Origin: a virus | Taxonomy: Duplodnaviria; Caudoviricetes | Direction: 5' to 3' (one strand) | Length of the DNA stretch: 48,484 bases | Virus record (IMG/VR): IMGVR_UViG_3300025600_000008 | Coordinates: 1 to 48,484 of that record | Part shown: positions 23,977 through 48,484 of the stretch, in pieces | Position numbering within the stretch: position 1 is the stretch's first letter | How the letters are laid out: every line of letters begins with the position of its first letter | Made by a program: the position numbers and the translations under genes | Notes under the pieces: generated by a model | The model's input: the letters and a program-made list of their open reading frames with translations, nothing else | Database searches by the model: none | What the model was told of the DNA's origin: nothing

Positions 23977-24029
23977 CAAATGTAATATCAAAAAACGATC
24001 ATTCGACAAAACATGCTACACAACATGTT
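23977..24029 (-). promoter_or_regulatory. TACATTTG promoter with AACATGCT/AACATGTT boxes
   Basis: -7 element 23977-23984; boxes at 24010 and 24022. Confidence 0.7.
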
Positions 24030-24529: not shown

Positions 24530-25720
24530 TTAATTTGTCGTTACGGCAAAATCAGCGAACCGATCATGCTCCATAATCACGTACCTTAGTGCTGCCAATC
24601 CATCCGGCTCATGTCCATCGGGCTCCGGAATGATCTTTCCGTTAATATCCACGCGCCAAAACCAAGTCTCAAAACCTTTTTTCATATTGACTGATCGTTC
24701 AGTGATGAACAGATCGTATCCCCGGGTTTTATTTATGCCAGTTATTACCGATCCTGGATTCTTTTTAACTCCCTTAATTTCATACCCGTACTTTCTAAGA
24801 TCGTTTATTTCAACACGTCCGGCGCTGTCTGCTATAATTAACTGACCTTTCAAGTGGTTGACAAACTGCAACTGATCAACTATCGCCATGCGTTCGGCAC
24901 CTGTAATCTTTTCCGGCATTAAGTTATTCATGCAAAAAACCTCGTCAATATAAATACAATTGTCTTTCTTCCAAAGGTCTATCTTAATTGTAGGGTCCGG
25001 GCTAACACCAAAGTCCATGCCAGATGGTATTCTCTTTGCTGTTGCTGGGATCTCTTTGCAAAAATTGAACTTATAGATTCGACGTTCTGAGTAATACCCG
25101 GTCTGACCAAGTCCATAAACCCTAAACCATTCAATGTTATCCCGCCTGGATTCAATAATATTAACCTCTGATTCCGGGCAGCACTCATTATCTAAATATG
25201 TTACTACTATTTGTTGGCTTATTGAATTACCATCACTGTCTTTTAATTTAGGTATCTCAGTATGTGCCCAGAATTCGAAATCTGGATTGTAATCTATGTA
25301 AACCTCCTCATGTGTTCGGCCTATATATGTTAATGCAACATCCCATCCAATTTTATTAGCCTCATTAATATACAGAATGTTGCGCCTTTTAGATTTTCCG
25401 GCCTGTTTTTTATTGTCGTTTACATACCTAAATTGAACTACTGATTGGCCTATTTTTAAATCGTGATCAGTTTTATTAAATGATCGTTCCCACTCTAACC
25501 CGGCCCCGTCAAATTGGTTTTTAAAATCCTGAATAGAGCCGTCTTTTAAGTTGTCGTAAGTGTCTGAAACAACTGTTATAATTCTTTTCTTTTCAAATGC
25601 TTTCTCAATAAGTATTTGAGCTATTGATACGTTTTTACCGGCGCCCATGCCCCCTTGTATTATTTTTATCTTAGCCCTCATGGCCTTAATTTTATAATAT
25701 GTTGAGATTCTTTTTATCAT
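24530..25720 (-). CDS. terL: Terminase large subunit (PBSX/Terminase_3 type)
   Basis: Walker A QGGMGAGK, Walker B YINEAN, DYNP, GMDFG..DPT nuclease motif, ADSA, H.PD...ALRY. Confidence 0.92.
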   Translation of the reverse strand: MIKRISTYYKIKAMRAKIKIIQGGMGAGKNVSIAQILIEKAFEKKRIITVVSDTYDNLKDGSIQDFKNQFDGAGLEWERSFNKTDHDLKIGQSVVQFRYVNDNKKQAGKSKRRNILYINEANKIGWDVALTYIGRTHEEVYIDYNPDFEFWAHTEIPKLKDSDGNSISQQIVVTYLDNECCPESEVNIIESRRDNIEWFRVYGLGQTGYYSERRIYKFNFCKEIPATAKRIPSGMDFGVSPDPTIKIDLWKKDNCIYIDEVFCMNNLMPEKITGAERMAIVDQLQFVNHLKGQLIIADSAGRVEINDLRKYGYEIKGVKKNPGSVITGINKTRGYDLFITERSVNMKKGFETWFWRVDINGKIIPEPDGHEPDGLAALRYVIMEHDRFADFAVTTN

Positions 25721-26301
25721 TCATTCGGGAATTGCTTCGATACATTCACATATTCAATAGCCTGTTTGAGTTGTATTTTTTCGGCCTCGTTATATCCAAG
25801 CATTTTATTAATCATATCAATAGCTGTTGTTTTTGGGTAAAGCTTAATCTTAACAAACTTAATTTCGGCCGTCGTTTCGTTATCCCCGTCTGTTTTGTAG
25901 GTCCGGTATTCGGTTTTAGTATCAATGCTTTCAATGGCTGACAATAAAGCCGGATTAGCCTCTTTAATTTCATTCCAATTGGTTAATTCAATCCAATCAT
26001 CGTGCAGTCCGGCAATGTTCGAATAAGCAATCTTTGCAAGCTCTTGAAGATTCCTTAATTTTGATATTCCGGCCTCTTCTTCAAGGTTATTTTTGATTAA
26101 GTCGATATATTGCTTAACCTTAACGTTTCTTAATAAGTTACAACCTAAAACCGCGGACGAATTATCATCTTCTAATCCATACGCTTTTTTATAGGAACGT
26201 GTTGCATTCCAATCAATTATGTAGTTGTGCGCAAATATTTTTTGCTTCTCGTTTAGCTCTTCTTTTAACTCTTCAAGCGTATATTGCTTTTTATCATCCA
26301 T
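25717..26301 (-). CDS. terS: Terminase small subunit
   Basis: LNEKQK.FA..Y..DWNAT..Y.KAY...LL.N.KV..YI; EL.KIA; KIKL..K..A...L.K.LG. Confidence 0.9.
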   Translation of the reverse strand: MDDKKQYTLEELKEELNEKQKIFAHNYIIDWNATRSYKKAYGLEDDNSSAVLGCNLLRNVKVKQYIDLIKNNLEEEAGISKLRNLQELAKIAYSNIAGLHDDWIELTNWNEIKEANPALLSAIESIDTKTEYRTYKTDGDNETTAEIKFVKIKLYPKTTAIDMINKMLGYNEAEKIQLKQAIEYVNVSKQFPNE

Positions 26302-26314
26302 AACTTAAATTTTG

Positions 26315-26387
26315 AGCCGGAAACAGGGATCGAACCCGTGACATTCTGAATACAAATCAGACACTCTACCAACTGAGCTATTCCGGC
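26315..26387 (-). tRNA. tRNA-Thr(UGU)
   Basis: GCCGGAA/TTCCGGC acceptor stem, GCTC-AGTTGGTA-GAGT D arm, TCTGA-TTTGTAT-TCAGA anticodon arm, GGTTCGATCC T arm; CCA not encoded. Confidence 0.93.
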
Positions 26388-28694: not shown

Positions 28695-28740
28695 TGTCTC
28701 ATCGTTTTTTACCGATTCAGCTTCCTTGCTGTTTCTGGTA

Positions 28741-28793
28741 CAAATATAAATCAATAAACATGTTAAATAACAAAAGCTGTTGAAGAACATGTT
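28741..28793 (-). promoter_or_regulatory. TATATTTG promoter with AACATGTT boxes
   Basis: -7 element 28741-28748; AACATGTT at 28757 and 28786. Confidence 0.7.
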
Positions 28794-30657: not shown

Positions 30658-30842
30658 AATTTTAGCCCCTCTTGCAAATCATTTTTATTGATCTTTCTCA
30701 AATCGCTTTCAAGTTTGGCCCAAAAATAGCAAGTTACGATTGAATCAGGTATTAACTGAACACATCCGCAAACCCTTTCTTTATTCAGGAACTTGACAAA
30801 TTTAATCAGTAGTTGGCGTTCTGTTTGTTTGCGTGCGATCAT
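30654..30842 (-). CDS. Hypothetical protein
   Basis: TAATG-coupled small ORF. Confidence 0.55.
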   Translation of the reverse strand: MIARKQTERQLLIKFVKFLNKERVCGCVQLIPDSIVTCYFWAKLESDLRKINKNDLQEGLKL

Positions 30843-31489
30843 TACTTGAAGTCGTAAAATGGTTTATCATCCGAATTTGTAATAATCGGCATAACAAGCA
30901 ATTTAATATCGCCAATGCTGAAAATATTACCATGCGATGAATTGCCGTGAGTTAATTGAATTTCATATGATCCGATAAATTCACAAATGTTTTTTAACGA
31001 TGTTAATCTACGAGCTAAAAAATAAGTATCGCCAATTCTAAATTTTTCGTGCGGATCTGGAATCATATTTCCTGTTGGTTTCCCGTGCCGCAATGTTCCC
31101 GATCCATTGCATCTATCACAATCGTGCGAATGGCCGCACGCATCACATTCAACTTCGCCTGACCCCTCGCATTCATGACATTCAATATCCGGCTCAAATT
31201 CGGGAATTTTAAGACACCTAAATAAGGCATCACTAATTTGATACAATGCGATAATAATCGGATTTTCTTTTTTGTAATCATCTGTCACCACATGTTTTGA
31301 TATTGTGGTTAATTTTGACGGCTCAATTATTTCATCAAAATAATGCAATGGCATCATAATAAATTCGTGCGCTTCCGTTGCACAATTGTAATCTATTCCG
31401 GCATAATTGAACGGAAAAGGTTTTTTAAAATCTGGTCTGTAATCTGATTCTTTTTCAGTGAACGAGTTTAATAGTTCTATTGCTGTCAT
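30842..31489 (-). CDS. DnaJ-type Zn-finger phage protein
   Basis: CHECEGSG..CDAC..CDRCNGSG; C-terminal L.MP. Confidence 0.75.
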   Translation of the reverse strand: MTAIELLNSFTEKESDYRPDFKKPFPFNYAGIDYNCATEAHEFIMMPLHYFDEIIEPSKLTTISKHVVTDDYKKENPIIIALYQISDALFRCLKIPEFEPDIECHECEGSGEVECDACGHSHDCDRCNGSGTLRHGKPTGNMIPDPHEKFRIGDTYFLARRLTSLKNICEFIGSYEIQLTHGNSSHGNIFSIGDIKLLVMPIITNSDDKPFYDFK

Positions 31490-31540
31490 TTCCTTATCGT
31501 TTTAAAATTTACGTAAAAATATATCGAATATTAATACATT

Positions 31541-31825
31541 TTACAAAAGATGTTTTATAACATGTTTTCCATGTTTCACCATAAATTCAGCATGAATCTG
31601 CATTAGTTCGGCTTTGGTGTATGGTGGTGACTGCGTATGAATTGCATCGTGAAGATTGTAATTAAGTGCAATTAATCCATTAATGTCGAGTTTATTTTTG
31701 CCTATTCTGCCGTTGATGTGATGAATATTTACCCCCGGCGTTCCATCCGCTTTCACTTCGCAAACAATATCTTCTTTGATTTGATAGCCAAAGTAGTCCA
31801 TATAGATTTTGATGTACTTTTCCAT
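31541..31825 (-). CDS. HNH-like small nuclease
   Basis: CEV...IHHI.GR....LIAL...HD.IH. Confidence 0.65.
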   Translation of the reverse strand: MEKYIKIYMDYFGYQIKEDIVCEVKADGTPGVNIHHINGRIGKNKLDINGLIALNYNLHDAIHTQSPPYTKAELMQIHAEFMVKHGKHVIKHLL

Positions 31826-32197: not shown

Positions 32198-32683
32198 TTA
32201 TTCGTTAAAATTAAGGTATGCAAATTCTTTAAAATGATGTTTTGCGGCCTTGTCGTATGCTCTTGCGGCGTCTGATTCGTCCATAAAATATCCGATGTGA
32301 ATTAGTTTTCCGTCTATTTGTATTCGCGATTGCCATTTATTATCCCTTTTATGCCAACAGACACCCTTATAAATAGATGTGCAATTTTTATCAGGTTTCT
32401 TCTGATTCATCATGTTTTCTTGATGCGTACAAATCCTTAAATTTAGTTTCTGATTGTTGCATCCATTGCCATCCTTGTGGTCTATATCTGATTTTTTAGG
32501 AGTGTCGCCTATAATAAATTGGTGCATATGCACGGTCTTCTGTCTGCCGTTAACAGGAACGACTCTTCTTGCATAAAATGTGTTTCCGTTTTTGAGTGCA
32601 TACCACTTAAATTGATTAACCATTTGGTAATCTTCGTCGTCTACTATTGCAACTTTTCCCTGTGTTAATTGTATTTCTTTCAT
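32198..32683 (-). CDS. HNH endonuclease with AP2 DNA-binding domain
   Basis: MKEI.LTQGK.A.VDDED, IDH.DGNG.NN...NLR, S.YKGV.W, GYF..E..AARAYD.AA. Confidence 0.9.
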   Translation of the reverse strand: MKEIQLTQGKVAIVDDEDYQMVNQFKWYALKNGNTFYARRVVPVNGRQKTVHMHQFIIGDTPKKSDIDHKDGNGCNNQKLNLRICTHQENMMNQKKPDKNCTSIYKGVCWHKRDNKWQSRIQIDGKLIHIGYFMDESDAARAYDKAAKHHFKEFAYLNFNE

Positions 32684-33178: not shown

Positions 33179-35560
33179 TTAAATTACATTTCCATCAAGA
33201 TCAATTTTTACACTGCATTTTATATCAGTATCCGAAAATAGCTGAAATTGTCCTTCTTGCTCGCATGCAGTCATGTGGTTACGTTTGTTGATCTCAAAGT
33301 AACTATCTTTTAGCTCGATTGAAATTGATTTGCGCCCCATTTTAATTGACTGGAACCCCTCTGAACCAATACCGCCGAAAGGACTTAAAACAACTTCGCC
33401 ACGATTAGAGTATAAAAGTATAATGCGCTCTATTACACCAAGTTGAAGTGGGCAGATATGTTTTTCGTCGCCGTTTCCTTTTGCATTCATATACTGCAAA
33501 GTATTGGTTACGTCAATATCCATCCATACCGGAGAGGCGTAGCGCTGCCAAACCTGATGCGAATACTGTTCTGTTTTGCTGTATTTACTTTCCTGATCGT
33601 ATCCCCAAAATTCATTAAATCCTTCGACCGATTTCGGGAATGTATCGAATTGGTGCATTGGAATATAATAAGTAAACCGAATATCATCTAATTGAATAGG
33701 CGTTTCGTTTACTTCTTTGGTCTTAAAACAAAGCACTCTATCAGGTAATCCGGCGCGAATAATACTCATGTCTTTCGTGACTTGTTTGTGGGCTAATCCG
33801 ATTGTTTTTGTTCTAACGGCTGCCAAAAGTGGATCTTTCCAGATCGTAAATTCAGAATGTAGGAACATATCTAAACTTTCAAAAATATCGCCAATCATCG
33901 CGCTAAATCTGCGAATTCCTATAAACCCATCGCGCCCCTTTTGAGTAGGTAAATCCATGCAGTGAATTGCAATTATCCGCCCCGGTTTAATTACTCGTTT
34001 CAATTCAATCGCCAAATATTTAAACTGCTCCACGAATTGATCATATCCGGTAACATTTCCCATATCTTCGATATAGTTGCTGTAACAATATAAATCCGCG
34101 AAAGGTGGGGAAAAAACGATTAAGTCTACCGAATTATCTGCAACCTCTTTAATCCTTTGCACACAATCGCCTCGCATTAATAAAAATTTGTCCGTTTTTA
34201 AATCCAATGAATTCATAGCATAATTTGTTAATTGTCCTTTTAAGTTTTTAGTAATCGCTTTAACCATATTCAACTGCATCGCTTCAAATGACTTTTGTTT
34301 GTCGTTTTGAATCTTCATAACATTAATCATTCTGTCTGTTGTGACCATCCAACAAGTTACCTTTTCAGTTCTGCCAAACCTCCAACTTCTACGCATTGCC
34401 TGAAATGCTTTCTCAAAACTAAAGTCAATCGAATTGAAAATCTGATAACCGCAATTTTGATAATTCAATCCCATGCTTGCAATTGATTCTTTTGTAATCA
34501 GAATTTGAAAGTTGTTATGAGCGAACCCAAGTAGATCAGTTTCCTTTTTTTCGTTTGAATCTGAGCCCTGAACGTTCCGGCAGTCATAACCTAATGCGGT
34601 TAATTGTTTGTATATATTTTTAGCTTCATCATTTTGCTTTGTCCAAATAATAACCGGCTCTGATTTTGGCAGTGACTGAACTATTTCAATAGTTTTTTTA
34701 ATCCTTTCGTTTTCTGTTTCGCGTAAACTTGAATTGTAATCGGTTGCATTTACCGCAATACCTGGAAACATTACGCCCTCTGGCAATGGAGTTGATACCT
34801 GAACTTCGATTATTTCAAGTTCCGGCAAATCAAATTCTGCCGCTTCGAATCCTATATCTTTAGGATGCGAATACATGATAGCCCACGAAGAAACGAACTC
34901 GTAAAATTTATCAACTGCATGCCCTTTTAATCGCCATTTTTGAGTCTGTTGCATATCATTCACAAAGAACATTGCCAACATTTCATTATAGTTCATTGCA
35001 TCTAAAAACTGGCTATGATTACCCAATTCCATCGGGTCGTTAGGTGATGGAGTTGCAGAAAAGCAATACTTATATGGAGTATTCTTGAATTTTTCAATTA
35101 ATAGATTCCGATACTTCCCGGATTCATTTTTCAAAATTGAACTTTCATCTAAACAAACACATCCGAATTGATCGCAGTCGATATTTTCAAGTTGTTCATA
35201 GTTTGAAATATATACGCCATGACCGAATACGTCACTTTTGAGACGTTCGACTGGAACATTGAATTTAACTCCTTGCTCAATTGTTTGACCTGATACAGCT
35301 AACGGAGAAAGAATCAATGATGGTTTTCCGGTTCTTAATGTAACTTGCTTTGCAATCTCTAACTGCATTGGTGTTTTACCCAATCCTGTATTAGCAAAAA
35401 TAGCATACTTCCCATGTTTTAACGCCCTTATTACCGTAAACACCTGAAACGGTTTTAACATCGGGTTAAGTTCGCTTTCGTCAATATCGAACCCTGATAC
35501 AATTTGAGTCTTTTGCTTTGTTTTTAAAAATTCTAAATAATTGTCTTTTACTTCATTCAT
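33179..35560 (-). CDS. SF2 (SNF2-like) helicase fused to N4-C/N6-A DNA methyltransferase
   Basis: TGLGKT, LDESS, SATP, QA.RR..RFG helicase motifs; then GDC, FSPPF catalytic motif and VLSPFGGIGSEG SAM-binding motif (beta-class order). Confidence 0.9.
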   Translation of the reverse strand: MNEVKDNYLEFLKTKQKTQIVSGFDIDESELNPMLKPFQVFTVIRALKHGKYAIFANTGLGKTPMQLEIAKQVTLRTGKPSLILSPLAVSGQTIEQGVKFNVPVERLKSDVFGHGVYISNYEQLENIDCDQFGCVCLDESSILKNESGKYRNLLIEKFKNTPYKYCFSATPSPNDPMELGNHSQFLDAMNYNEMLAMFFVNDMQQTQKWRLKGHAVDKFYEFVSSWAIMYSHPKDIGFEAAEFDLPELEIIEVQVSTPLPEGVMFPGIAVNATDYNSSLRETENERIKKTIEIVQSLPKSEPVIIWTKQNDEAKNIYKQLTALGYDCRNVQGSDSNEKKETDLLGFAHNNFQILITKESIASMGLNYQNCGYQIFNSIDFSFEKAFQAMRRSWRFGRTEKVTCWMVTTDRMINVMKIQNDKQKSFEAMQLNMVKAITKNLKGQLTNYAMNSLDLKTDKFLLMRGDCVQRIKEVADNSVDLIVFSPPFADLYCYSNYIEDMGNVTGYDQFVEQFKYLAIELKRVIKPGRIIAIHCMDLPTQKGRDGFIGIRRFSAMIGDIFESLDMFLHSEFTIWKDPLLAAVRTKTIGLAHKQVTKDMSIIRAGLPDRVLCFKTKEVNETPIQLDDIRFTYYIPMHQFDTFPKSVEGFNEFWGYDQESKYSKTEQYSHQVWQRYASPVWMDIDVTNTLQYMNAKGNGDEKHICPLQLGVIERIILLYSNRGEVVLSPFGGIGSEGFQSIKMGRKSISIELKDSYFEINKRNHMTACEQEGQFQLFSDTDIKCSVKIDLDGNVI

Positions 35561-35593
35561 CGTTTTTATCGTTTTTAGTATTTAATTATGGAC

Positions 35594-35647
35594 CAAATAT
35601 AAGTCAATAATAGTGTTAAATAGACCAAACATGTTTAATAACATGTT
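35594..35647 (-). promoter_or_regulatory. TATATTTG promoter with two AACATGTT boxes
   Basis: -7 element 35594-35601; boxes at 35628 and 35640. Confidence 0.72.
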
Positions 35648-36508: not shown

Positions 36509-38254
36509 TTAAAATTTTAAATTATCAACTGATTCAATTTCTTGCGGTTCAATATAATTATTCATTGGAAAATTATTCCTTTGAATCTCTGTATAATATC
36601 TGTTTTCTGTTATTTCATATTGAAAATCAACCTCGCCGGGTATCCCAACTAACCGTTGTTTTTTAATTTTCCCGATAATTATTTTAACGGTTTTGTCTGC
36701 ATAGTCTGTTTTTCGGTACGGCCTCCAAACGCTCACAACATTATCCGCCTTATCTGAAAATGTTCCACCGCCTTTTATTTTGTAAATATCCGGTTGAGGA
36801 TAATTTTCTTTTCCTTGAAAAAATGGAGTAGTTTGATGAGCAACTAATCCAAAACAAACATCATTATCAATGCTGAATTTCTTCAATTTAGTCATAAACC
36901 GGCTAATATAAAGGTCTTCTCGCTCTCCTTTTTCCATTAAATGATCTATGTTATTGTAAGGGTCAACCGTACAACAATTAACGCCGTAACGCCGTATCAA
37001 GTACTTAAATCGTGAAAGTATCCCATCTAATTGATAATCCTCTTCTGGTAAGACAAAGTAAAAATGTTCATTAATAAAGTTTGCAGCGTCACGATATTCA
37101 TCTTCACTCATTACATTTGAAAATCTTTTATCTGTTGATTTTCCTGTATAACAATGAATCAATTCATCTATTAACTCACTTACCGGATAATTTTCAGGAC
37201 AAAACATTGCAAATTTCCAATCTTCTTTTTCGGCTTTTTTAACCTGTAATGCGTTCCAAAAACATGATTTACCTTCATTGTTATATCCGGTTAAAATTGT
37301 AACCTCCCCTTGCCTCCACCGCCAATGCTTATCTAATTTCTCAAAATATGTTGTAGTTCCGTATCGTTTGCCGTTTCTGAACTCATGCAACATTTTATCC
37401 CATTCCATCGCTACGGTAAAAACACCATCTAAGGGTATTTCTTTTGCTGTTTCCAGTATGTTTTTTAGCTCTTCTTTCCCGTATTTAATAAGATATTCAT
37501 TTGCGTCTTTGCAGTCCTTGAAATCGACTAAAAAGCAACGTTCTGCACCGATTCGCCTTATTAGTTCGTTCCGTAGCTGAACGCCAGCCTCGTCTGAATC
37601 AACTGCTATATACCATTTTTCTATTCTTTCGATATCATCATAGCATTGATCTATAAAGTCGAAATTCTTTGCCCCATTTGGAACCGATACGCAATTTTTC
37701 AAGCCAACCTCAATAAATGAAAGACAATCAATTTCGCCCTCAACGATAATAGCAAAGTCATTGTTTTTAATTCCGTTCAGATTGTATAGTATCAATTCAC
37801 CGCCCTTAAATAAACCAAATGATTTTTCTGGCCCGCGATATTTTACATTGATTAGTTCTTCACCTCTGAAATAATTAAAGTTGATTGTTTCTACTTCCTT
37901 TTCAAATTTCTGCATCCAATTTATACCGGACGTGATTTTCATTTGTCGCAAAATGAATTGAGAAATTCCACGACCTTCAAAATATTTAACAACTTTATCG
38001 CTCAATACTGTTCCGTTGTGCCATTCAGGACGCGCAAATGTTTTCTCTTTTGGTTGAAAATCTTTGAACTCATAAAATGCTTCACCGCAATTATGACACT
38101 TTCCTACTTTGTCGTTATGGTTCCAGTTGAAACATTTGTCTTTTTGTTTTTTCCTGTTGGCAGAACACGCCGGACATTGAGTTGATTCGGTCCCGTTATA
38201 TTTTGCAAAATCGACTGTGTATTCCTGTCGTGTTGATTTGGCTACAATTTTCAT
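36509..38254 (-). CDS. Primase-helicase, T7 gp4/Twinkle-like
   Basis: CPAC..CHNC Zn domain, TOPRIM VEGEIDCLS / D.DEAG / KDANE, Walker A TGYNNEGKS, VDPY, LVAH, GG.F..KAD. Confidence 0.93.
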   Translation of the reverse strand: MKIVAKSTRQEYTVDFAKYNGTESTQCPACSANRKKQKDKCFNWNHNDKVGKCHNCGEAFYEFKDFQPKEKTFARPEWHNGTVLSDKVVKYFEGRGISQFILRQMKITSGINWMQKFEKEVETINFNYFRGEELINVKYRGPEKSFGLFKGGELILYNLNGIKNNDFAIIVEGEIDCLSFIEVGLKNCVSVPNGAKNFDFIDQCYDDIERIEKWYIAVDSDEAGVQLRNELIRRIGAERCFLVDFKDCKDANEYLIKYGKEELKNILETAKEIPLDGVFTVAMEWDKMLHEFRNGKRYGTTTYFEKLDKHWRWRQGEVTILTGYNNEGKSCFWNALQVKKAEKEDWKFAMFCPENYPVSELIDELIHCYTGKSTDKRFSNVMSEDEYRDAANFINEHFYFVLPEEDYQLDGILSRFKYLIRRYGVNCCTVDPYNNIDHLMEKGEREDLYISRFMTKLKKFSIDNDVCFGLVAHQTTPFFQGKENYPQPDIYKIKGGGTFSDKADNVVSVWRPYRKTDYADKTVKIIIGKIKKQRLVGIPGEVDFQYEITENRYYTEIQRNNFPMNNYIEPQEIESVDNLKF

Positions 38255-38979
38255 CTATATTCAGGCTTAAGTCCGTAAGTTAAGTATTCTTCACCTGTCA
38301 TTCCTTTTCCTATTTCTGTCACTGGAATTCGTTCAGGTTTTGGCTGTTCTATTTTATATTCCTTACCGTTGATGTTTTTTGGAGGAAATAATCCGGCATA
38401 ATTCTTCGACATTGAATTTTGAAGCATGGCTTTTGCAATTACTAAATTTTGTCCTGAATCAACAATGAATCCTTTAATAAATGATTTTAGTCCAGTATTT
38501 TTATACGATTGTCCTTTTTCTGATTTATACTTTAACCATTCTAAGATTAAAGGCTCGAATCCTTCAGGAATTGAAATTTCATTTTTTTCCTTAATTGTAT
38601 TATATATTACTAAATAAGAAGTAGTATTTCTATTTTCATTTTCAGTTTCCATATGTGAGGTCATATGACCCTCTTCTTTTTTGTATTGATTCGTTCCTAA
38701 TTTATTATTTCTCCTGCTGTCTGTAAATAACTTACGCCTGTTTTGCTCCTCTTCTAATCTAATATTGTAATATAAACCTTCTTCATCCTGAATAAATTTT
38801 ATTTGTATTGTGTTCCAAAGTTGACCAATCGTTTGACCTATCATATGTGAGGTCATATGACCTCTGTTAAATTGAAGCATTAGCAATTCAATATATGCAC
38901 CTTTTTCTTCGAAAGTCATTCCCATTGTGCCTCCTAAATAATCATTAGGGTAAAATAAAAAAGCCGGATCTTTTGCCAT
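38251..38979 (-). CDS. Replication initiator-like protein (YdaU/DUF1376 N-terminus)
   Basis: PAFLFYP.D.L.GT..MT.EE.GAYI.LL..Q; EWL.YK...S..NY.GLF C-terminus; upstream of the helicase. Confidence 0.75.
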   Translation of the reverse strand: MAKDPAFLFYPNDYLGGTMGMTFEEKGAYIELLMLQFNRGHMTSHMIGQTIGQLWNTIQIKFIQDEEGLYYNIRLEEEQNRRKLFTDSRRNNKLGTNQYKKEEGHMTSHMETENENRNTTSYLVIYNTIKEKNEISIPEGFEPLILEWLKYKSEKGQSYKNTGLKSFIKGFIVDSGQNLVIAKAMLQNSMSKNYAGLFPPKNINGKEYKIEQPKPERIPVTEIGKGMTGEEYLTYGLKPEYR

Positions 38980-39315: not shown

Positions 39316-39798
39316 TTATGGCATTACGTTTTGATGGGCAAATTCTCCAAAATATTTAATAGATGCCACATTATATGATTGTGATGCTTCAATTTCAGAT
39401 GCAAACAACCCTAAATGAATACATATTCCCTCTTTTTTTATATACGCCCGCCATTTTTTAGATGCCCTAAACCAGCAAACTCCTTTATATTTTGATGATA
39501 CCCCAACCTGCGATCTTTGATTCATCATATTTTCAGATCTTGTGCAAAATCTCAAATTTACTTTCTGGTTATTGCATCCATCTCCGGTAATGTGGTCTAT
39601 ATCTAATTTTTGTGGATTGTCCCCCATTATTAATTTATGCATTAGCTGTGTTTTACACTTGCCGTTAATCGTTATGCATCTTCTTGCATAGAATGTATTG
39701 CTAACTTTATGTGCGTACCATTTAAATTTATTTACGCGTTCAAAATCCTCATCATCTATTAATGCAAATTTACCTTGTGTTAATTTAATCTCTTTCAT
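39316..39798 (-). CDS. HNH endonuclease with AP2 domain (paralog of 32198..32683)
   Basis: Same MKEI.LTQGK, IDH..G.G.NN..NLR, SKYKGV.W and YFGEFA motifs. Confidence 0.9.
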   Translation of the reverse strand: MKEIKLTQGKFALIDDEDFERVNKFKWYAHKVSNTFYARRCITINGKCKTQLMHKLIMGDNPQKLDIDHITGDGCNNQKVNLRFCTRSENMMNQRSQVGVSSKYKGVCWFRASKKWRAYIKKEGICIHLGLFASEIEASQSYNVASIKYFGEFAHQNVMP

Positions 39799-39894: not shown

Positions 39895-40019
39895 AATATT
39901 AATCAATTAATTTGACAATTCAAATAAATTTTAAAAATAAATTCAGGTGATTAGCTTAACTAATTGGCTTACTCTGTTATCGGTTTCTTTTGACCGACCG
40001 AACCTGAATTTTGAATCTG

Positions 40020-40121
40020 TACAGCCCTAAGCCGCCATTTTCATTTCAATTGTTTTGCCTGTTATTGGCTGTAATACCCTCGATTAATCTACTTTTCTGC
40101 TAATCAAAACCAGTCACCCCC
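40020..40121 (-). ncRNA. ssrA: Permuted tmRNA, coding piece (mature 5' end at 40121; 3' end uncertain, may extend to about 39939)
   Basis: GGGGGUG-ACUGGUUUUGA 5' end; P2 strand UUAGCAG; UAACA then GGC resume codon; tag GKTIEMKMAA-stop at 40059-40027. Confidence 0.88.
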
Positions 40122-40183
40122 GGAGCCAAGTTTCTTTTATATCGAAGAAAACAGGAAGAAACGTTACTAATTGGCGATTAGCG

Positions 40184-40246
40184 TGGAGGTGGTGGGAGTC
40201 GAACCCACGTCTTAACAGTTTTTCAAATAACTTCAACGGATATTAT
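40184..40246 (-). ncRNA. ssrA: Permuted tmRNA, acceptor piece
   Basis: CUGUUAA-GAC-GUGGG-UUCGACU-CCCAC-CACCUCC-A; pairs with the coding piece giving G3-U70 and A73; CCA not encoded. Confidence 0.88.
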
Positions 40247-40252
40247 TAGGTA

Positions 40253-40260
40253 CAAATATA
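40253..40260 (-). promoter_or_regulatory. Bacteroidota-type -7 promoter element for tmRNA
   Basis: TATATTTG a few nt upstream of where acceptor-piece pairing begins. Confidence 0.7.
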
Positions 40261-40264
40261 GTAA

Positions 40265-40435
40265 TTATCTAAATACGTTTGGCCTTGCACGATCAAAAAA
40301 TTCATTTCTCGGTTCCCCGTGTGACTTAATAAACGCCGCCCTTTTAGCATACATCGTTTTTGAATGTGATCTTTTAACCGTCACACACGAGTCTAAAATC
40401 GAGAGTAAAAATAGAAATAAAAGTAGTTTTTTCAT
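40265..40435 (-). CDS. 56-aa putative lipoprotein (not in ORF track)
   Basis: MKKLLLFLFLLSILDSC signal peptide with Cys17, basic mature part. Confidence 0.65.
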   Translation of the reverse strand: MKKLLLFLFLLSILDSCVTVKRSHSKTMYAKRAAFIKSHGEPRNEFFDRARPNVFR

Positions 40436-40445
40436 TTAAATAAAT

Positions 40446-40931
40446 TTAAAGTTTTGCCATAAATCGTTCATACTCCTTCTCGATAGTGTTAATAATCGAA
40501 TCATAAATTTCACCTTCAAAGAATTTACCTATTACATTTTCGTAGATAAACGGTAACTGCTCCCGTATAAACGATTCAAAGCGTTTTTGCGACATATTTC
40601 CGAAACTGATACTTTCATACTCAACCATCTTTGTGCCGTCCGAAAAGTCAAACAAAACAGCATACTCGCCTTTTAAATGTTTAATGAAGATGTAAAATTT
40701 ATCTTCGGGTACTGCCTTTCTGAATTTCAAAGGTAGGTAATTGTAGATGAAATTAAGCAATGAAAAATAACAGCGATGCATTGAAATGTCGCGGGCTGTT
40801 ACTTCTTTGAATGAAAGTATTTCACCTTTACGGGATTGATCTAAAAGCTCCGAAGCGTTTTCGTTTGCCGGAATAAAACCACCTCCGACATTTGCCAATT
40901 CGATTAATTTGAAGTAATCAGAATCTTTCAT
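40446..40931 (-). CDS. NinB/DUF1367-like recombination accessory protein
   Basis: R....HR.YF.LL...SISF..M.Q..F. Confidence 0.7.
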   Translation of the reverse strand: MKDSDYFKLIELANVGGGFIPANENASELLDQSRKGEILSFKEVTARDISMHRCYFSLLNFIYNYLPLKFRKAVPEDKFYIFIKHLKGEYAVLFDFSDGTKMVEYESISFGNMSQKRFESFIREQLPFIYENVIGKFFEGEIYDSIINTIEKEYERFMAKL

Positions 40932-41230
40932 TGATTGAATAGTTTTTGATTTTGCATTAATAGTTTTTGCGCCTTCTCAAAAGTGCTTATACGAATACCA
41001 AAGTCTTGAAAAAATAATGTTTTTCCGTTAAATTCCCTTGCTTTAATGTAATCGTAATAAAGTTCCCTATCTGATGATAATACAAATTTATAAATTTGCA
41101 AACTTAATTCATCCGGTTCGGTATCTGATACATAAAGCAAAAAATACTGTTTGCAAATATCGCCATTTTTAGTTTTATTTTTTATAAAACATTTTGAAAT
41201 TACTGCAATTTTAGCGCCTTCGTTTTTCAT
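40928..41230 (-). CDS. Hypothetical protein
   Basis: 100-aa ORF, ATGA coupling. Confidence 0.65.
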   Translation of the reverse strand: MKNEGAKIAVISKCFIKNKTKNGDICKQYFLLYVSDTEPDELSLQIYKFVLSSDRELYYDYIKAREFNGKTLFFQDFGIRISTFEKAQKLLMQNQKLFNQ

Positions 41231-41365: not shown

Positions 41366-42046
41366 CTACTTTTCATCGAACAAATACATTAAATTTCTGA
41401 ATTGTAAATACTCAATAAATTGAGTTAATAGCTTTTCAATATCCTTTCTCATTCCGGCGTATTCCAAGCATTCTATCGGTTCGTGTCGGATTAACTTTAG
41501 CTTACTGACATCATACAAATCCCGCTCTTTTTTGTACCCTTTAAATTCAAATACATCATAGCAGAATTTCGGAACGTCGAATAAATCAAGATAAAAACGC
41601 CACTGATACGAATCTGTATAGTCGGTTTCAGTTCTGATTGCTGAATACTTTGTTTTAATATCCCGAATTAAATTACCTAAAAGTAAATCAAGTCCACCGG
41701 ATACGGTTATTTCAATCCCTTCAATCAAATACTTTTTAGTAGTCCGTAATTCGTGAAAACAACCCTTATTTTCGGCTTTATACTGCAAAGCCATATCAAT
41801 GTGCTGTTGGTTCATTAAAACGTCAAATTCATCTATCCTTAGCCTTCGCAAATCGCCTTCGTGAATTGTTACGTCTCCAGATTCAACTATTTTGTGAAAA
41901 GCCGTGCCAATTCGGGTGTATTCATTTCCGGTAAATTGTCCGGTCAATGTCTCCAAAAGGTTTTCTTCTGTTGAGTAAATCGAAGTACCCTGAATGAATC
42001 TTCGGAATGCTTCGATTGTAGTCACTCTAAATTGTAGGTTAGACAT
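41366..42046 (-). CDS. PD-(D/E)XK exonuclease (recombination)
   Basis: GTAFH, G.LD.....IRDIKT, QWRFYL; paired with Sak4-like ATPase. Confidence 0.8.
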   Translation of the reverse strand: MSNLQFRVTTIEAFRRFIQGTSIYSTEENLLETLTGQFTGNEYTRIGTAFHKIVESGDVTIHEGDLRRLRIDEFDVLMNQQHIDMALQYKAENKGCFHELRTTKKYLIEGIEITVSGGLDLLLGNLIRDIKTKYSAIRTETDYTDSYQWRFYLDLFDVPKFCYDVFEFKGYKKERDLYDVSKLKLIRHEPIECLEYAGMRKDIEKLLTQFIEYLQFRNLMYLFDEK

Positions 42047-42923
42047 GTTCAAATTTCTTTGATGTTGTATTGTAGCCTATTTTAACAATCTCCATTTTGC
42101 TCTTAAAAACAGACCTGAACCCGATCTGTTGACCTTTTGGAAGCTTTGCAATTTCTTCGCTGATCGTTTCGGCATGTTCCGGCGTGGTCATTTCGTTGAT
42201 CAAATCCTGAACCCTTTCAATCTGGATCATTGCTTCTTTTTGTGATTCGGTCATTGATTGAATTGAATTGCGAACCGATTCAATAATTTCAGTCATACAA
42301 GTTTTAAAAGCCGGATCTGTTTCGTTTGGAATTTCCATAATTGGAAGCCTTGCAACGTTTTTACCAACAGTTCTATCGGTTGGATCAAACTGAATTGTTC
42401 GCTTATTGTTTGCCATATACATATAACCAACCTGATCGGAAATACGTAAAAGTAAATCTTTTGAACCGCCCGTTACGTCAGGTGAAATTTTCACATTGTC
42501 ACCTTCTTTTTCTTCTTTGGCATGAGCTAAAATAACAATGTCGATTTCTTCACCACGTCTGCGATTAATGAACATTTTGAACTCTTCTCCAATTGCGCCG
42601 TACGCTTTCAATTTATTGGTTTTGAGTTTGTAATCCATTTCGGCCACGTATGTCATAAGGTAATCATCTAGCACGGCCTTGGCGGTATCAATTCCCAATG
42701 TTTTGTAGTGCTTAATTTCCTGCTCGTCTACAATTACATCTTTCCAATTTGATGCTACGATTGTGTCTTGTCTGAAAATTGCCCTGTCGCCTCCACGATC
42801 ACAGTCTAAAAGAATTGGAGTATTTGCAGTGTTGAAAAGCGAAGTTTTGCCAACTCCAGGACTGCCATAGATCAGTATTATTACCGGTCTTTTTGGAAAA
42901 GAATCTGTTTTTTTAATAATCAT
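42039..42923 (-). CDS. AAA_24/Sak4-like ATPase (ssDNA annealing)
   Basis: IYGSPGVGKTS, LLD.DRG, IDT, ILAH, D.VGY, GKN. Confidence 0.85.
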   Translation of the reverse strand: MIIKKTDSFPKRPVIILIYGSPGVGKTSLFNTANTPILLDCDRGGDRAIFRQDTIVASNWKDVIVDEQEIKHYKTLGIDTAKAVLDDYLMTYVAEMDYKLKTNKLKAYGAIGEEFKMFINRRRGEEIDIVILAHAKEEKEGDNVKISPDVTGGSKDLLLRISDQVGYMYMANNKRTIQFDPTDRTVGKNVARLPIMEIPNETDPAFKTCMTEIIESVRNSIQSMTESQKEAMIQIERVQDLINEMTTPEHAETISEEIAKLPKGQQIGFRSVFKSKMEIVKIGYNTTSKKFEHV

Positions 42924-43002
42924 CGTTTTTAAATTTAAAGTGTTTGAAAGTGTAAATATAGTGAAAAACTTTCGTAATTCACTATATTTGTGTTAATTAA
43001 TA

Positions 43003-43266: not shown

Positions 43267-43536
43267 TTAAAGTTTTGAGGTGAAAACCGCCAACGTTGCG
43301 GCGTATTCGGCGTCAAATTCTTCTTTGGTGCATTTGATGCGGTCGCAACCAAGAGCATGAATAGAAGAGTAAACTTCGATTTGTGGATAATCCGTTTCTG
43401 ATGACACGACATGCAGCGCTTCTGATTCACTAAATACTTTCCAGTAATGGCATTTTACTGCTGTTCCTTTGCAATAATAAGGGAGTGTTAACTCAACCTC
43501 TTCGAATACTGGATTTGTTCTAACTTGAATTTTCAT
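43267..43536 (-). CDS. Hypothetical protein
   Basis: E.TLPYY.K...T.EEF motif; first gene after promoter 43560. Confidence 0.7.
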   Translation of the reverse strand: MKIQVRTNPVFEEVELTLPYYCKGTAVKCHYWKVFSESEALHVVSSETDYPQIEVYSSIHALGCDRIKCTKEEFDAEYAATLAVFTSKL

Positions 43537-43559
43537 TGTATCGTTTTTAAATTGTACTT

Positions 43560-43612
43560 CAAAGATAAGTTAAATGATAATCGGTATTACAAAACATGCT
43601 GTTAAACATGTT
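43560..43612 (-). promoter_or_regulatory. TATCTTTG promoter with AACATGCT/AACATGTT boxes
   Basis: -7 element 43560-43567; boxes at 43593 and 43605. Confidence 0.72.
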
Positions 43613-43635: not shown

Positions 43636-44883
43636 TTAAAGTTTTTCGATTTCGGATTTTGCCCACTTTTTAAACCCTTCAAACTTTGCCGAAATATCGG
43701 AGGCGGTAACGGTTGCGGATAAATCATTTGTTTTCGGTATTGCAATATTAAGTGATTCAATCCACTTTGTCAGCTTTATTTTATCCGGTGCTTTTGCGGC
43801 CTGTTTTTCTGCCTCGATGCGTTCCTTTTCTTTGCGTTCAATATCTTGCTTCGCTTTTAATTCGGCTTCGTTTTTGGCTTTAATTTCGGCTTCTAATTGA
43901 GCCTGTTTTGCTTCTGCCTTTTCGCGTTCGATACGTGCGGTTTCTTCGATAGTTTTTTGTTTTGCCTCTAATTCGATACGTTGTTTTTCTGCAATATCGG
44001 CAAGTCTTTTAGCTTCTTTTTCTGCTAATTCCTTTTGCAGTTTCAATTCCTTTTCTGCCTTTTCGCGCTCGGCCTTCAATTCAAGTTCCTTGCGTTCGGA
44101 TTCTTTTTGAAGTCTTTCATTTTCAAGTCTCACGCGTTCATTTTCGGCGTCCTCGTAAATTTTTGATTCGGTTAAGGCGGTCTTTAAGTCATTCCATTGT
44201 TCATCTGACAGTTCACCAAGATTCATATTCCTATATTCAGCTGTGACATATTTCCAAAGATCAATAATAGATTCTTTGCGCTCTGCAAAAAGTTGTAGAA
44301 TTCTTCCTTTTTCAATCCGTTCTGCTTCGGCTTGTTTTTCGGCCTCTATTTTGTCGTTATACTGTTTTTCAAGTCCGGACAAAAACAAATCAAACATTGA
44401 ATCTGACATGTTTTCAAATTCAGAGCTAAATACATCAGAACTGAATTTTAACACTTTCATAATTCGCTCGTGTATTTTCAATTCTTTACGCTCTGCCTCA
44501 ATGCGTTCTTTTGTTTCCTCTTTCCATTTTGCATTAGCCTCAATTTCTTTTGTAAGAATCTCCATTACCTGTCTTGATTTAAGCCAGAGTGAATCCTCGG
44601 TTTTATCAGATAACATTTTAATTCTCAATTCTTCGCGCTTCGCATCAAATTCCTTTGCGCCCTGGATTCTGGCATCCCTGACTCCCAACCGGATGGTATT
44701 GGCCATCTTCATGGACGTTTTGTCATTTTCATCAGTCACTACGACTAAATCCAATTGATCGCGCATTTTGGTAACGCCATTGAATACGTGGTTTAAAACT
44801 GCCTGTACTTCGTTTCTTTTTTCGATTGAAACGTTTTGAGCCATTTGCTCAATTTCTGCCGGTAAAAATACTTGTTCTGTCAT
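43636..44883 (-). CDS. Long coiled-coil early protein
   Basis: E/K/A-rich heptads, C-terminal A.APDK.KL motif. Confidence 0.8.
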   Translation of the reverse strand: MTEQVFLPAEIEQMAQNVSIEKRNEVQAVLNHVFNGVTKMRDQLDLVVVTDENDKTSMKMANTIRLGVRDARIQGAKEFDAKREELRIKMLSDKTEDSLWLKSRQVMEILTKEIEANAKWKEETKERIEAERKELKIHERIMKVLKFSSDVFSSEFENMSDSMFDLFLSGLEKQYNDKIEAEKQAEAERIEKGRILQLFAERKESIIDLWKYVTAEYRNMNLGELSDEQWNDLKTALTESKIYEDAENERVRLENERLQKESERKELELKAEREKAEKELKLQKELAEKEAKRLADIAEKQRIELEAKQKTIEETARIEREKAEAKQAQLEAEIKAKNEAELKAKQDIERKEKERIEAEKQAAKAPDKIKLTKWIESLNIAIPKTNDLSATVTASDISAKFEGFKKWAKSEIEKL

Positions 44884-44908
44884 TTTATTATCGTTTTTAA
44901 AAGTTTAT

Positions 44909-44961
44909 CAAATGTATATAAAATAGAAATATGCGTGTAGAAAACTGCTGTTAAACATGTT
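44909..44961 (-). promoter_or_regulatory. TACATTTG promoter with AACATGTT box
   Basis: -7 element 44909-44916; degenerate box near 44942, perfect box at 44954. Confidence 0.7.
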
Positions 44962-45092
44962 TTGTTTCTGACCGCCTCCGATCAAATCCAGTATGACCGG
45001 AGGCATTTACAAAAAAAGGTGTCTGTATCGCTATGGTAGGCTAAGAAAACCAGACTATAACAAATCGGAGGCTCAACTAAACCTCGGATATT

Positions 45093-45366
45093 TTAATAAT
45101 TTGGCAGTACAAACACAAAATTATTGTCTGTCATTTCGGCCTCATAAAGGCTATTTTTTGCTAATTCTGGATTATCCCATTTACCATTAACGTCGGTTAG
45201 TGATATTACTTTATCAACCGATAGCGTAACTTTACCATCGACAAAGGTGTCTCCGACCGCGATATCTTTCGCTGTACCTCGCTGATAATACTTACCCCCC
45301 CCCTAAATGTTTGCGCTCGTAAATATTTACTCCATTCGACGCGCTTGATGTGTGATTGTGCTGCAT
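45093..45366 (-). pseudogene. 90-aa ORF frameshifted at a G9 tract
   Basis: G9 (45295-45303) gives 24 aa then TAA; G8 gives MQHNH...GGGKYYQRG...VLPNY. Confidence 0.6.
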
Positions 45367-45396
45367 AATAATTGTTTTTAAAAGTGAAATTTATAA

Positions 45397-45562: not shown

Positions 45563-45637
45563 TTATTTGTTTTTAGACATTAATAAAGATCCGATTAAAA
45601 TTGCCAGTATTCCGGCAAGTACGATTATTTCCCACAT
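45563..45637 (-). CDS. 24-aa hydrophobic peptide (not in ORF track)
   Basis: MWEIIVLAGILAILIGSLLMSKNK, fills the gap between two ORFs exactly. Confidence 0.55.
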   Translation of the reverse strand: MWEIIVLAGILAILIGSLLMSKNK

Positions 45638-45639
45638 GG

Positions 45640-45816
45640 CTATCGTTTTAAACTATTTAACATTGTTTCTTTCATCTTATACATGCCTCCGTTTAAAGTG
45701 ATTATTTTAGGGTATTCGTACATGGTGAATTTCAATTTCTTTTCTCCTTTTGGAAGTGGTTTGCGTCCTGCTTTTTCGGATGCCGTGCCGTCGAGTTTGA
45801 TTTTTTGGTAGCTCAT
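45640..45816 (-). CDS. 58-aa basic putative DNA-binding protein (not in ORF track)
   Basis: AGRKPLPKGEKK motif. Confidence 0.6.
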   Translation of the reverse strand: MSYQKIKLDGTASEKAGRKPLPKGEKKLKFTMYEYPKIITLNGGMYKMKETMLNSLKR

Positions 45817-46178: not shown

Positions 46179-46388
46179 TTAATTTTCATAGCAAATTCTT
46201 TCATCAATATTTAATATGTGATTTCCCTGTTTATGTGAAAAATCCATAAACACCGGATGATTTTTAGATTCGTTATATTCTTTCTTTGAAATTTTACGCC
46301 CCCAGAATCCGTTATCATATTGGTCAAATCTTTTATTATAAACCGGCTTGCCTTTTATTGTTCTTTTTGTTATCGTGATAGTTTCCAT
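46179..46388 (-). CDS. Hypothetical early protein
   Basis: First ORF after the TAAATTTG promoter at 46414-46421. Confidence 0.65.
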   Translation of the reverse strand: METITITKRTIKGKPVYNKRFDQYDNGFWGRKISKKEYNESKNHPVFMDFSHKQGNHILNIDERICYEN

Positions 46389-46494
46389 TTTGTCATTTTT
46401 AAAGTTTGTAGTACAAATTTAAGTATAAGTTTTATATACACCTAATATATTTACATCTATTTTACAAAAAGTGTTGTAGAACATGTTTTAAACG

Positions 46495-46561
46495 AAAAAA
46501 CGCCTGTAATCGGGCGATTACAGGCGCAAATTTCAAACTAACCAAACTTTCTAAAAACGAT
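46495..46561 (-). ncRNA. Candidate ~67-nt small RNA with intrinsic terminator
   Basis: TTTG (46591-46594) and TAAATTTG (46565-46572) promoter elements; no ORF; CGCCTGTAATC/GATTACAGGCG stem plus U6. Confidence 0.55.
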
Positions 46562-46595
46562 ACGCAAATTTAATAATTTATTCGACAATTCAAAA

Positions 46596-47255
46596 CTACT
46601 TTGTGATAAAATAACCGCCAACCAATCCGGCGGCCCCCCACACATACCATTTTTTGTACCATGAAGTTTTATTGATTACGTCTATTTGATAACCTGATGT
46701 TATTTTAGCGTTCGGGTCATCGGTATAAATGGTAATCTTTGTTTCTTTTCCTTTGGTTTCGGTTATTGAATTTAATTTTACTTTGTAATCATGCTTTAAA
46801 TCGTTAATCGTGTACATTTTTACATATCCGCTTAATGTCAGGTAGTCATCTGTCCATGCGAAGTGTTTTGCAGCCTCTGAAATACCGTCGTGAATGTAAA
46901 CCGTATCGGATAACGGGATTGAATCAATGCGTCCTGACGCCTCTAATTCTGCCTGTAATGTAGCGGTGATGTTTCGCCATTTAATGTCTTTTTGTCTTAG
47001 TTCTTTAATCGTTAAGCCGGTCAATTCAAGTGACTTTTTTAACACATTCGATTCGATCACAACGGAATTTAATTGAGAGTAAACCTGTCCGGTTTTCGTT
47101 TTGTAAACCCTCGCGCTGTCATTGGCGATTAATAACGCAACTGACTGCAAATCGATTGTTTTATCCTTACTGTTTATTTTGAAATATTGGACAATGATGA
47201 TAATTAACATTCCTGCGAATAGTGCATAAATGGCATACTTTAGATATTTATTCAT
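46596..47255 (-). CDS. Membrane-anchored lysis-cassette protein (spanin-like)
   Basis: N-terminal TM, coiled coil, C-terminal W.K.W...AAGLVGGY; last gene of the lysis operon. Confidence 0.6.
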   Translation of the reverse strand: MNKYLKYAIYALFAGMLIIIIVQYFKINSKDKTIDLQSVALLIANDSARVYKTKTGQVYSQLNSVVIESNVLKKSLELTGLTIKELRQKDIKWRNITATLQAELEASGRIDSIPLSDTVYIHDGISEAAKHFAWTDDYLTLSGYVKMYTINDLKHDYKVKLNSITETKGKETKITIYTDDPNAKITSGYQIDVINKTSWYKKWYVWGAAGLVGGYFITK

Positions 47256-47986: not shown

Positions 47987-48357
47987 TCATTCGGCAAATG
48001 TAAAGTCTGCCAATCGATTAAGCCAACCTTTGATAAATTTTTGTTGTGTTGGATTATTTTTGACAATATCCCAAAAGAATTTTTCACGTGCTTTTTTAAT
48101 ATCCTGAAATAATCCCTTTTGATTTGCGGTATTTACGGCTTTCAGTGTCATTGGACCAACTATTCCATCTTCGACTAATCCCATGATTCTTTGAGGTATG
48201 ATAATCCCCCATTTACCGCTATTCAGTAACCAGTCAACAAGAATACTTGCAATTGATTGGTTATTTATTTTATCGCCTTGCCATTTATCCCAAAAGTTTT
48301 CTTTGTAAAATTCAGCCACCAATTCATTAAGGTCTTCATTTCTGGATAGGTTTTTTG
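47987..48357 (-). CDS. Endolysin GH108, C-terminal part with peptidoglycan-binding domain
   Basis: FYK.NFWD, D...NSG, Q...G...DGI.GP.TL.A.N, F.KGWLNR. Confidence 0.92.
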
Positions 48358-48484
48358 GAAATTCGGTATAATTTTTAGCGTTATCAATCATTACCCATCC
48401 ATGCCAATTGGGCCAGAACTTACGGGAAATACCTCGAAAAGTTTCTAATCCTTTATCATCAGGATCGTTAACCCATCCCCCCTC
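48358..48484. repeat. Terminal direct repeat, copy 2 (circular assembly overlap)
   Basis: Identical to 1-127. Confidence 0.95.

Follow-up and report, generated by a model that had tools for sequence, protein, structure and literature searches.

In this study, we find that a phage genome carries, between its lysis and early genes, a short promoter-to-terminator cassette whose predicted product of about 67 nt is probably a small RNA that acts in trans to repress the early regulon of the same phage at the level of translation, sparing the late operon. It is likely that the 5' end of this RNA pairs with short tags located at start codons, and we lean towards a role of the RNA as a timing brake on early genes. 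As judged from sequence, the antisense reading is well supported by the conservation, orientation and position of the elements involved.

The window, that is, the whole stretch of DNA analysed here (48,484 nt, referred to as G000), is an entire phage genome with a terminal repeat of 127 nt. Nearly all of its ORFs lie on the minus strand (77 minus-strand and 10 plus-strand ORFs were examined), and several could be named by PHROG/Pfam matches (Table 1). The host is presumably a member of the Bacteroidota, because the phage has TAnnTTTG promoters, and capsid relatives of it sit in Bacteroidota genomes. No GenBank phage matched G000, either by DNA or by capsid protein. In agreement with the preliminary description of this DNA, which had noted neither an integrase nor an obvious CI repressor, no integrase, partition gene or large CI-like repressor was matched among the 87 ORFs, and a 61-aa HTH_3 protein is encoded. 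Other RNA genes are present as well. A permuted two-piece tmRNA with the tag peptide GKTIEMKMAA lies at 39936-40273 (minus strand), and a permuted tmRNA with an identical tag peptide was found in the relatives G001, G003 and G004 and was not called in G002. A tRNA-Thr(TGT) at 26314-26387 (minus strand) is kept in G002, G003 and G004. The 435 nt at 44962-45396 (minus strand) have no called minus-strand gene and contain nine consecutive G as well as several hairpins, and G004 has a tRNA-Arg at a comparable place.

Table 1. Coordinates of the genes, cassette elements, promoters and predicted target sites in the window.
Feature	Position	Strand	Remarks
Portal	20461-22215	minus	PHROG/Pfam match
Promoter before portal/head/tail operon	23977..24029 (box 24022-24029)	minus	same tandem box as first early promoter; tag-free leader
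Terminase	24530-26301		PHROG/Pfam match
Site before 111-aa gene (start 28694)	28701..28709	minus	boxes 28757-28793; predicted duplex -13.7 kcal/mol
Site before 215-aa gene 30842-31489	31496..31503	minus	box 31559-31566; predicted duplex -11.0 kcal/mol
Helicase-methyltransferase	33179-35560	minus	PHROG/Pfam match
Two tandem sites, helicase-methyltransferase gene	35559..35576	minus	boxes 35628-35647; predicted duplex -15.5 kcal/mol
Primase-helicase	36509-38254		PHROG/Pfam match
Sak4-like annealing protein	42039-42923	minus	PHROG/Pfam match
Site overlapping ATG of Sak4-like gene	42922..42930	minus	predicted duplex -13.6 kcal/mol
Site before 89-aa gene 43267-43536	43540..43548	minus	box 43605-43612; predicted duplex -16.1 kcal/mol
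Site before 415-aa gene 43636-44883	44890..44898	minus	box 44954-44961; predicted duplex -16.7 kcal/mol
Conserved 58-aa protein	45640..45816	minus	tag-free leader; 91-97% identity in relatives
Site AAAACGAT before 24-codon ORF (start 45637)	45642..45649	minus	position kept in G001-G004
Weakened site AAAAATGAC (C to T, G-U pair) before first early gene 46179-46388	46392..46400	minus	predicted duplex -13.0 kcal/mol
First early promoter, tandem AACATGTT-N4-AACA box	46468..46487 (46480-46487)	minus	directly behind terminator
Intrinsic terminator	46494..46527	minus	12-pair stem (46527-46500) and T-run
Predicted 67-nt small RNA	46495..46561	minus	start inferred at A of ATCG
Seed AUCGUUUUU (ATCGTTTTT in DNA), RNA 5' end	46553..46561	minus	extendable to 46544
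-7 element TAAATTTG (TAnnTTTG)	46565..46572	minus	6/8 columns invariant in six cassette variants
-33 element TTTG, sigma-ABfr-type promoter	46591..46594	minus	weakly kept in relatives
219-aa gene, last in lysis region	46596..47255	minus	
Endolysin	47987-48391		PHROG/Pfam match

The cassette begins directly after the stop codon of the 219-aa gene and ends ahead of the first AACATGTT-box promoter. As the preliminary description had it, a promoter is followed by a unit of about 67 nt and a strong terminator, the order on the minus strand being TTTG, 18 nt, TAAATTTG, 3 nt, ATCGTTTTT, a linker rich in U and G, and a terminator of 12 pairs. The cassette promoter conforms to the sigma-ABfr consensus as given in the accessible part of the relevant report (PMC7366714), and there is no AACATGTT box above it. 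The seed is where it had been placed; the proposed GU start of the RNA is less likely, and the A of ATCG, at the seed itself, is the more likely 5' end, since the distance from the -7 box to the seed is 3-4 nt in 6/6 variants. With a start at the seed, some target matches would become 1-2 nt shorter, and the tolerance of a T-to-C change at the last base of the tag, which would pair with the 5'-terminal A, would be explained. The predicted RNA folds only at the terminator (fold z -3.78), and the mean unpaired probability of nt 1-10, the seed region, is 0.89 in G000 and 0.89-0.96 across variants. It is likely that the same terminator also ends the late/lysis transcript. At the Rfam gathering threshold nothing lies over the cassette, and six sub-threshold matches (E<=10) were judged to be due to chance. 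On the strand opposite the cassette, no ATG that opens an ORF was found in G000-G004 or in the stretches L365 and L366.

The long relatives of G000 retrieved by protein and pattern scans are G001 to G004 (100, 100, 93 and 49% complete), along with several fragments. Since these genomes are related and mosaic, counts across them are not independent. Each long relative carries one cassette at the same lysis/early junction. Six aligned cassette variants are invariant in 9/9 columns of the seed and in 6/8 of the -7 box, and fewer columns are kept in the spacer above the -7 box (4/18), between box and seed (0/4), in the linker (9/28) and in the hairpin (11/32). The canonical TAnnTTTG is present in 6/6 aligned variants, a seventh variant (L459) having one mismatch in the -7 box, and the predicted RNA length in the other five variants is 65-71 nt. 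Relatives have three distinct stem sequences, each still a terminator hairpin of 12-14 pairs; RNAalifold performed poorly on the six variants because the three hairpin types misalign. In G004 the 219-aa gene has been swapped for another allele, yet promoter and seed are kept. It was also observed that G001, G002 and G003 have early and lysis modules in common with G000 but no capsid-protein match, and thus different head modules.

Searches for further cassettes led back to the same clade. A promoter-plus-seed scan gave cassettes in 2 of 33 stretches (L006, identical to the window, and L027), the other 31 being without the architecture. In a promoter-plus-tag scan with at least 120 loci, the cassette loci among the matches listed all came from the known clade, and a query with the Sak4 protein returned a single match, the window's twin. 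A linker scan identified 5 of 43 stretches as cassettes, one of them new. A covariance model of the cassette had 7 matches in 98 sources, all of them clade cassettes that had been used to build the model, and in 5 further records it gave weak matches only (E 0.2-0.9).

The complement of the seed is strongly enriched in the window and concentrated at gene starts. AAAAACGAT occurs 13 times, as compared to 2.47 expected, and none of 100 shuffled sequences had as many copies. On the coding strand, 6 of 12 copies of AAAACGAT lie between -25 and +3 relative to a called start (p 8.5e-7), and these leader windows cover 3.2% of the sequence. The corresponding shares from G000 to G004 are 6/12, 7/17, 5/11, 8/17 and 6/11 (p 1e-7 to 3e-5), with leaders making up 3-4% of the sequence. 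When ranked among 336 8-mers of the same composition, the tag was first in G000 and first, tied first or second across G000-G004. The orientation is also biased: coding-strand copies of AAAACGAT and ATCGTTTT number 12:4, 17:2, 11:1, 17:1 and 11:2 in the five genomes, and in G002 and G003 the sole inverted copy of the tag is the cassette. Start codons were assigned with a simple heuristic, which missed the one at 28694 in some counts.

Taking G000-G004 together, AAAACGA(T/C) lies just upstream of 37 start codons, which represent about 33 distinct N-termini. The tag sits at -2 to +7 from the ATG at 37/37 sites, although the search reached +13. Its distance to a -7-like box ranges from 4 to 32 nt, and 8/37 sites have no box within 45 nt. 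Because its spacing to the AUG is tight and its spacing to the box is loose or absent, we regard the tag as a feature of translation start rather than of the promoter. This spacing bears directly on another reading, in which a protein would bind AAAAACGAT as a DNA operator and would have a further binding site in the inverted copy at +1 of the cassette. The 29/37 sites within 45 nt below a -7-like box would suit an operator, and the wobble pattern is indecisive because the last position often shows a T-to-C change that breaks pairing. Changes that keep a G-U pair are also the most frequent class of mutation, and independent variants are few. However, the motif is non-palindromic, leaders carry it in one orientation and the opposite one occurs only in the cassette, one-base insertions and G-U-compatible changes occur in first-gene leaders, the promoters already own a separate tandem box, and a 67-nt promoter-terminator unit would still need a function. 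We thus consider an operator quite improbable.

The tag is not a generic feature of Bacteroidota leaders, since AAACGAT is present in 38/437 clade leaders and in 21/2415 leaders of 36 distant capsid relatives, where it is about 10-fold rarer; enrichment beyond ordinary A-rich leaders is thereby borne out. Likewise, in three bacterial MAGs TAAAAACGAT showed no excess over its reversed control (25 vs 32, 19 vs 27 and 11 vs 10). Broader tests were modest. Dinucleotide-shuffle tests of the first 24 nt of the RNA gave p 0.034-0.23 for any 8-mer and p 0.014-0.10 for 9-mers in five genomes, and p 0.006-0.056 for 8-mers with at least two G/C in the four genomes tested; duplex-energy z values of the clade RNAs were -0.7 to -2.9. 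Such tests are weakened by the ability of U-rich sequences in general to pair with A-rich leaders. The predicted core pairing is A/U-rich and has 8-9 bp. It could accordingly be argued that the cassette is a mere late-operon terminator with a U-rich 3' end that matches A-rich leaders by chance: a terminator would be required at the junction of lysis and early genes in any case, and shuffled U-rich sequences also pair with these leaders. The rarity of the CG-containing tag in the 36 other Bacteroidota-type phages and the MAG counts speak against this, as does the invariance of promoter and seed while neighbouring bases and the upstream gene change, and of all the readings weighed here we give it the least credence.

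Within the window, the predicted target sites are dispersed over 18 kb (Table 1), and the predicted duplexes of the six main leaders range from -11.0 to -16.7 kcal/mol. The complements which the preliminary description had listed before the starts at 44883, 43536, 35560 (two copies), 42923, 31489, 28694, 45637 and 41230 were recovered with the lengths given there, counted from the GU start. The one at 45637 precedes only a 24-codon ORF, and its site is kept in the four relatives. The one at 41230, a match of 7-8 nt, is probably incidental; it lies some 20 nt upstream, in the apparent coding end of a small upstream ORF, and is lost in G001 and G004. A weakened site before the first early gene (46392-46400) had been overlooked. 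The site at 28701..28709 is 32 nt below a -7 box. The leaders of the primase-helicase gene and of its neighbour 38251-38979 have no tag.

The distribution of the tag follows the division into early and late genes. In line with the preliminary description, in which the motif had not been noticed before head or tail genes, AAAACGAT was found in 0/31 called late-region leaders versus 5/43 early ones in G000, and five target genes are indeed the first behind AACATGTT-box promoters. In the clade as a whole, 3/138 late leaders are tagged versus 27/278 early ones (p 0.004, related genomes); the three tagged late-region leaders belong to small genes that precede the lysis genes and have a -7 box of their own. 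Early promoters and the head/tail promoter share the tandem AACATGTT box, mostly about 37 nt above the -7 element, which is also present in the sister phages G042-G044, and the leader of the late operon is tag-free in G000, G001, G003 and G004. A candidate for the regulator that binds the box is the conserved 58-aa protein, for which atlas leads are RHH-like, all <0.9, and the predicted fold is of low confidence (pLDDT 57). A second U-rich terminator unit with TTCGTTTTT is located just before the late promoter in G003 (11347-11400) and at the same place in G001. As an sRNA this second unit was not significant (p 0.19-0.20).

A simple scheme would account for these observations. Host RNA polymerase would transcribe the sRNA from its own box-less promoter, and the 5' end of this RNA, AUCGUUUUU, which is predicted to be single-stranded, would form duplexes of 9-20 nt, including G-U pairs and bulges, with the AAAAACGAU tag at early and middle gene starts, blocking translation of the tagged genes jointly. 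The duplex would cover the A-rich window from -14 to -3, which would be the substitute of Bacteroidota ribosomes for the Shine-Dalgarno sequence; adenines at -3, -6, -12 and -13 are described to promote initiation in Flavobacterium (PMC6847099, seen in part). Repression would be ribosome occlusion, as with GibS and FopS, for which an unstructured 5' seed, a terminator and repression at start codons are described in the accessible parts of the reports (PMC7366714, PMC11697453). As early and late operons share the DNA box and the tag is in early leaders only, the sRNA would supply the difference: its build-up would lower early protein output with head and tail genes spared, and late read-through ending at the cassette terminator could add RNA late in infection. 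We favour a timer in lytic growth over lysogeny because no integrase was found. If true, a phage sRNA governing several operons of its own phage would add a new level to temporal control and be an example of phage gene silencing in a phylum without Shine-Dalgarno pairing, and it might be a compact tool for joint gene repression in Bacteroidota.

The tag could instead be recognised in the mRNA by a protein of the phage or the host, and the sRNA would block this site, the outcome being net relief or loss of antitermination and not an occluded ribosome. Conceivable proteins are a RegA-like repressor and a factor for antitermination or initiation. A short tag of constant sequence and constant spacing to the AUG fits such a site equally well, and RbpB is described, in the part of the report available, to antagonise FopS at one target (PMC11697453). 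However, no candidate RNA-binding protein was seen among the annotated ORFs, and the predicted duplex would cover or abut the start codon, which alone is enough to explain repression; our estimate for a protein site is accordingly very low. The preliminary description had also offered the related proposal that the RNA titrates a motif-binding factor. At the RNA level this is unlikely, since what the RNA contains is the complement of the motif rather than the motif itself. As a decoy it would be the wrong strand, and we have rejected that role.

The putative antisense RNA resembles several known regulators without being identical to any. The phage product RegA of T4 acts at the start regions of many early mRNAs and lowers their translation; RegA is a protein, whereas the agent of the cassette is a predicted RNA. 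P4 CI RNA is a phage antisense RNA that controls the phage's own development. Sar, OOP and aQ RNAs are encoded opposite their target. c4 RNA is processed and cloverleaf-like, whereas the cassette RNA is unstructured apart from its terminator. According to the accessible text on c4 of P1/P7, it is likewise a phage-encoded antisense RNA that acts on the phage's own transcripts in developmental control, but it regulates one antirepressor operon, whereas the cassette faces 6-10 separate leaders (PMC8201110). There was no Rfam C4 match over the cassette and no antirepressor match among the G000 ORFs. Sar of P22 and OOP and aQ of lambda are comparable as short phage RNAs that block or destabilise a regulatory early mRNA, Sar by blocking translation initiation; they have one target each (PMC12197685, as far as the accessible text goes). 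The cassette has no opposite-strand gene start.

The closest likeness is to FopS and GibS of Bacteroides, which, in the parts of the reports at hand, have a single-stranded U-rich 5' seed, an intrinsic terminator and start-codon pairing and often target the first gene of several operons; FopS also has a sigma-ABfr promoter (PMC11697453, PMC7366714). These RNAs differ in being host-encoded, with host metabolic targets and with FopS in multiple copies, whereas the cassette is present in one phage copy and faces a tag that is specific to the phage and sits on its own genes. Compared by eye with the published portion seen, the 5' end of FopS-10 has an anti-AUG triplet where the cassette seed has AUCG (PMC11697453). 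We conclude that the cassette would work like FopS/GibS and is apparently not a member of the family, given that the seed differs and that Rfam returned no FopS/GibS match at gathering or at E<=10. According to the accessible part of one report (PMC12197685), each phage antisense RNA directed at phage genes has a single target, and phage sRNAs with several targets are directed at the host. In the literature consulted, mostly open-access and largely abstracts, we found no phage sRNA that regulates several operons of its own phage.

The same pairing may also serve another purpose, namely a carrier or dormant state, or the exclusion of superinfecting relatives through their tagged early mRNAs. 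The box-less cassette promoter could be active for as long as the cell contains the phage DNA, the tag is identical across phages with different capsid modules, as an immunity group needs, and c4 and Sar serve lysogeny. However, no integrase or partition gene was matched among the 87 ORFs, and 0/4 clade relatives are classed as provirus, as compared to 6/33 distant virus records. We consider these purposes unlikely, and retain the timing brake as the preferred function of the RNA.

Compensatory changes between seed and leaders, which had been suggested as a check, are not visible within the clade because the seed is constant there, and the minor differences that occur 3' of it do not follow each phage's own targets. 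Between lineages, compensatory change is only suggestive. The sister phages G042 and G043 share the AACATGTT boxes with the clade but not the tag. In G042, AAACGAA is present in 4/82 leaders and AAACGAT in 0/82, and a terminator unit after a lysis-region gene contains TTTCGTTT. The ratio of AAACGAT to AAACGAA leaders is 38:5 in the clade versus 0:6 in G042 and the fragment G044 (p 3e-5, a single lineage switch). The TTTCGTTT unit has no canonical promoter and failed the shuffle test (p 0.62-0.75). At the same junction, the unit of G043 has another U-rich sequence, whose best pairing (-21 kcal/mol) is with the first gene of a box-type operon; it gave p 0.028 with 8-mers and 0.16 with 7-mers and also lacks a canonical promoter.

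As for its origin, it is plausible that the cassette arose from a cis-antisense RNA by a cis-to-trans change. On the opposite strand, the clade cassette reads as a leader with ATG changed to ATA or ATT and with no ORF. In G024, G027, G028, G030 and G035 (L310-L335), promoter-to-terminator units lie antisense over an early gene start, and units of this kind are possibly the source of the cassette. These genomes are distant, temperate Chryseobacterium-type capsid relatives, proviruses among them. The seed of the G027 unit also matches 4/61 other leaders (9-mer shuffle test, p 0.004). Among cassettes with other seeds, only G027 of the 21 outside the clade (27 in all) passed the 9-mer test, with G036 borderline (p 0.052); G010, G022, G029 and G041, with energy z of about -3.5 among the matches listed, failed the exact-match shuffle test. 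We do not claim a general family of trans-acting sRNAs among the capsid relatives, as most distant cassettes failed the shuffle tests.

In four related genomes the tag recurs at the starts of mostly unrelated genes. We put forward a wider model only tentatively, at somewhat less than even confidence: Bacteroidota phages may have a repressor-free switch in which one sRNA would control an early regulon via a lineage-specific tag, the tag travelling with promoter-leader modules, the sRNA having a cis-antisense origin, and seed and tag switching together (G042, G043). If the tag does travel with such modules, newly acquired genes would be controlled at once.

Other gene-less or structured units were observed in these phages. 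In G022, G033, G041, G013 and G010, gene-less units have 5' ends that read anti-(leader plus AUG), like the 5' end of FopS-10, and trans targeting by these units was not significant in the exact-match test. G042 (L414) has a gene-less promoter-to-terminator unit of about 95 nt at ~40820-40940, between its U-rich unit and the first box promoter. An HNH endonuclease gene in G001 and G003 (L184-L185 region), and also in G042, has a long structured leader after a box promoter, and the HNH genes of G000 (32198-32683 and 39316-39798) have hairpin leaders of other types.
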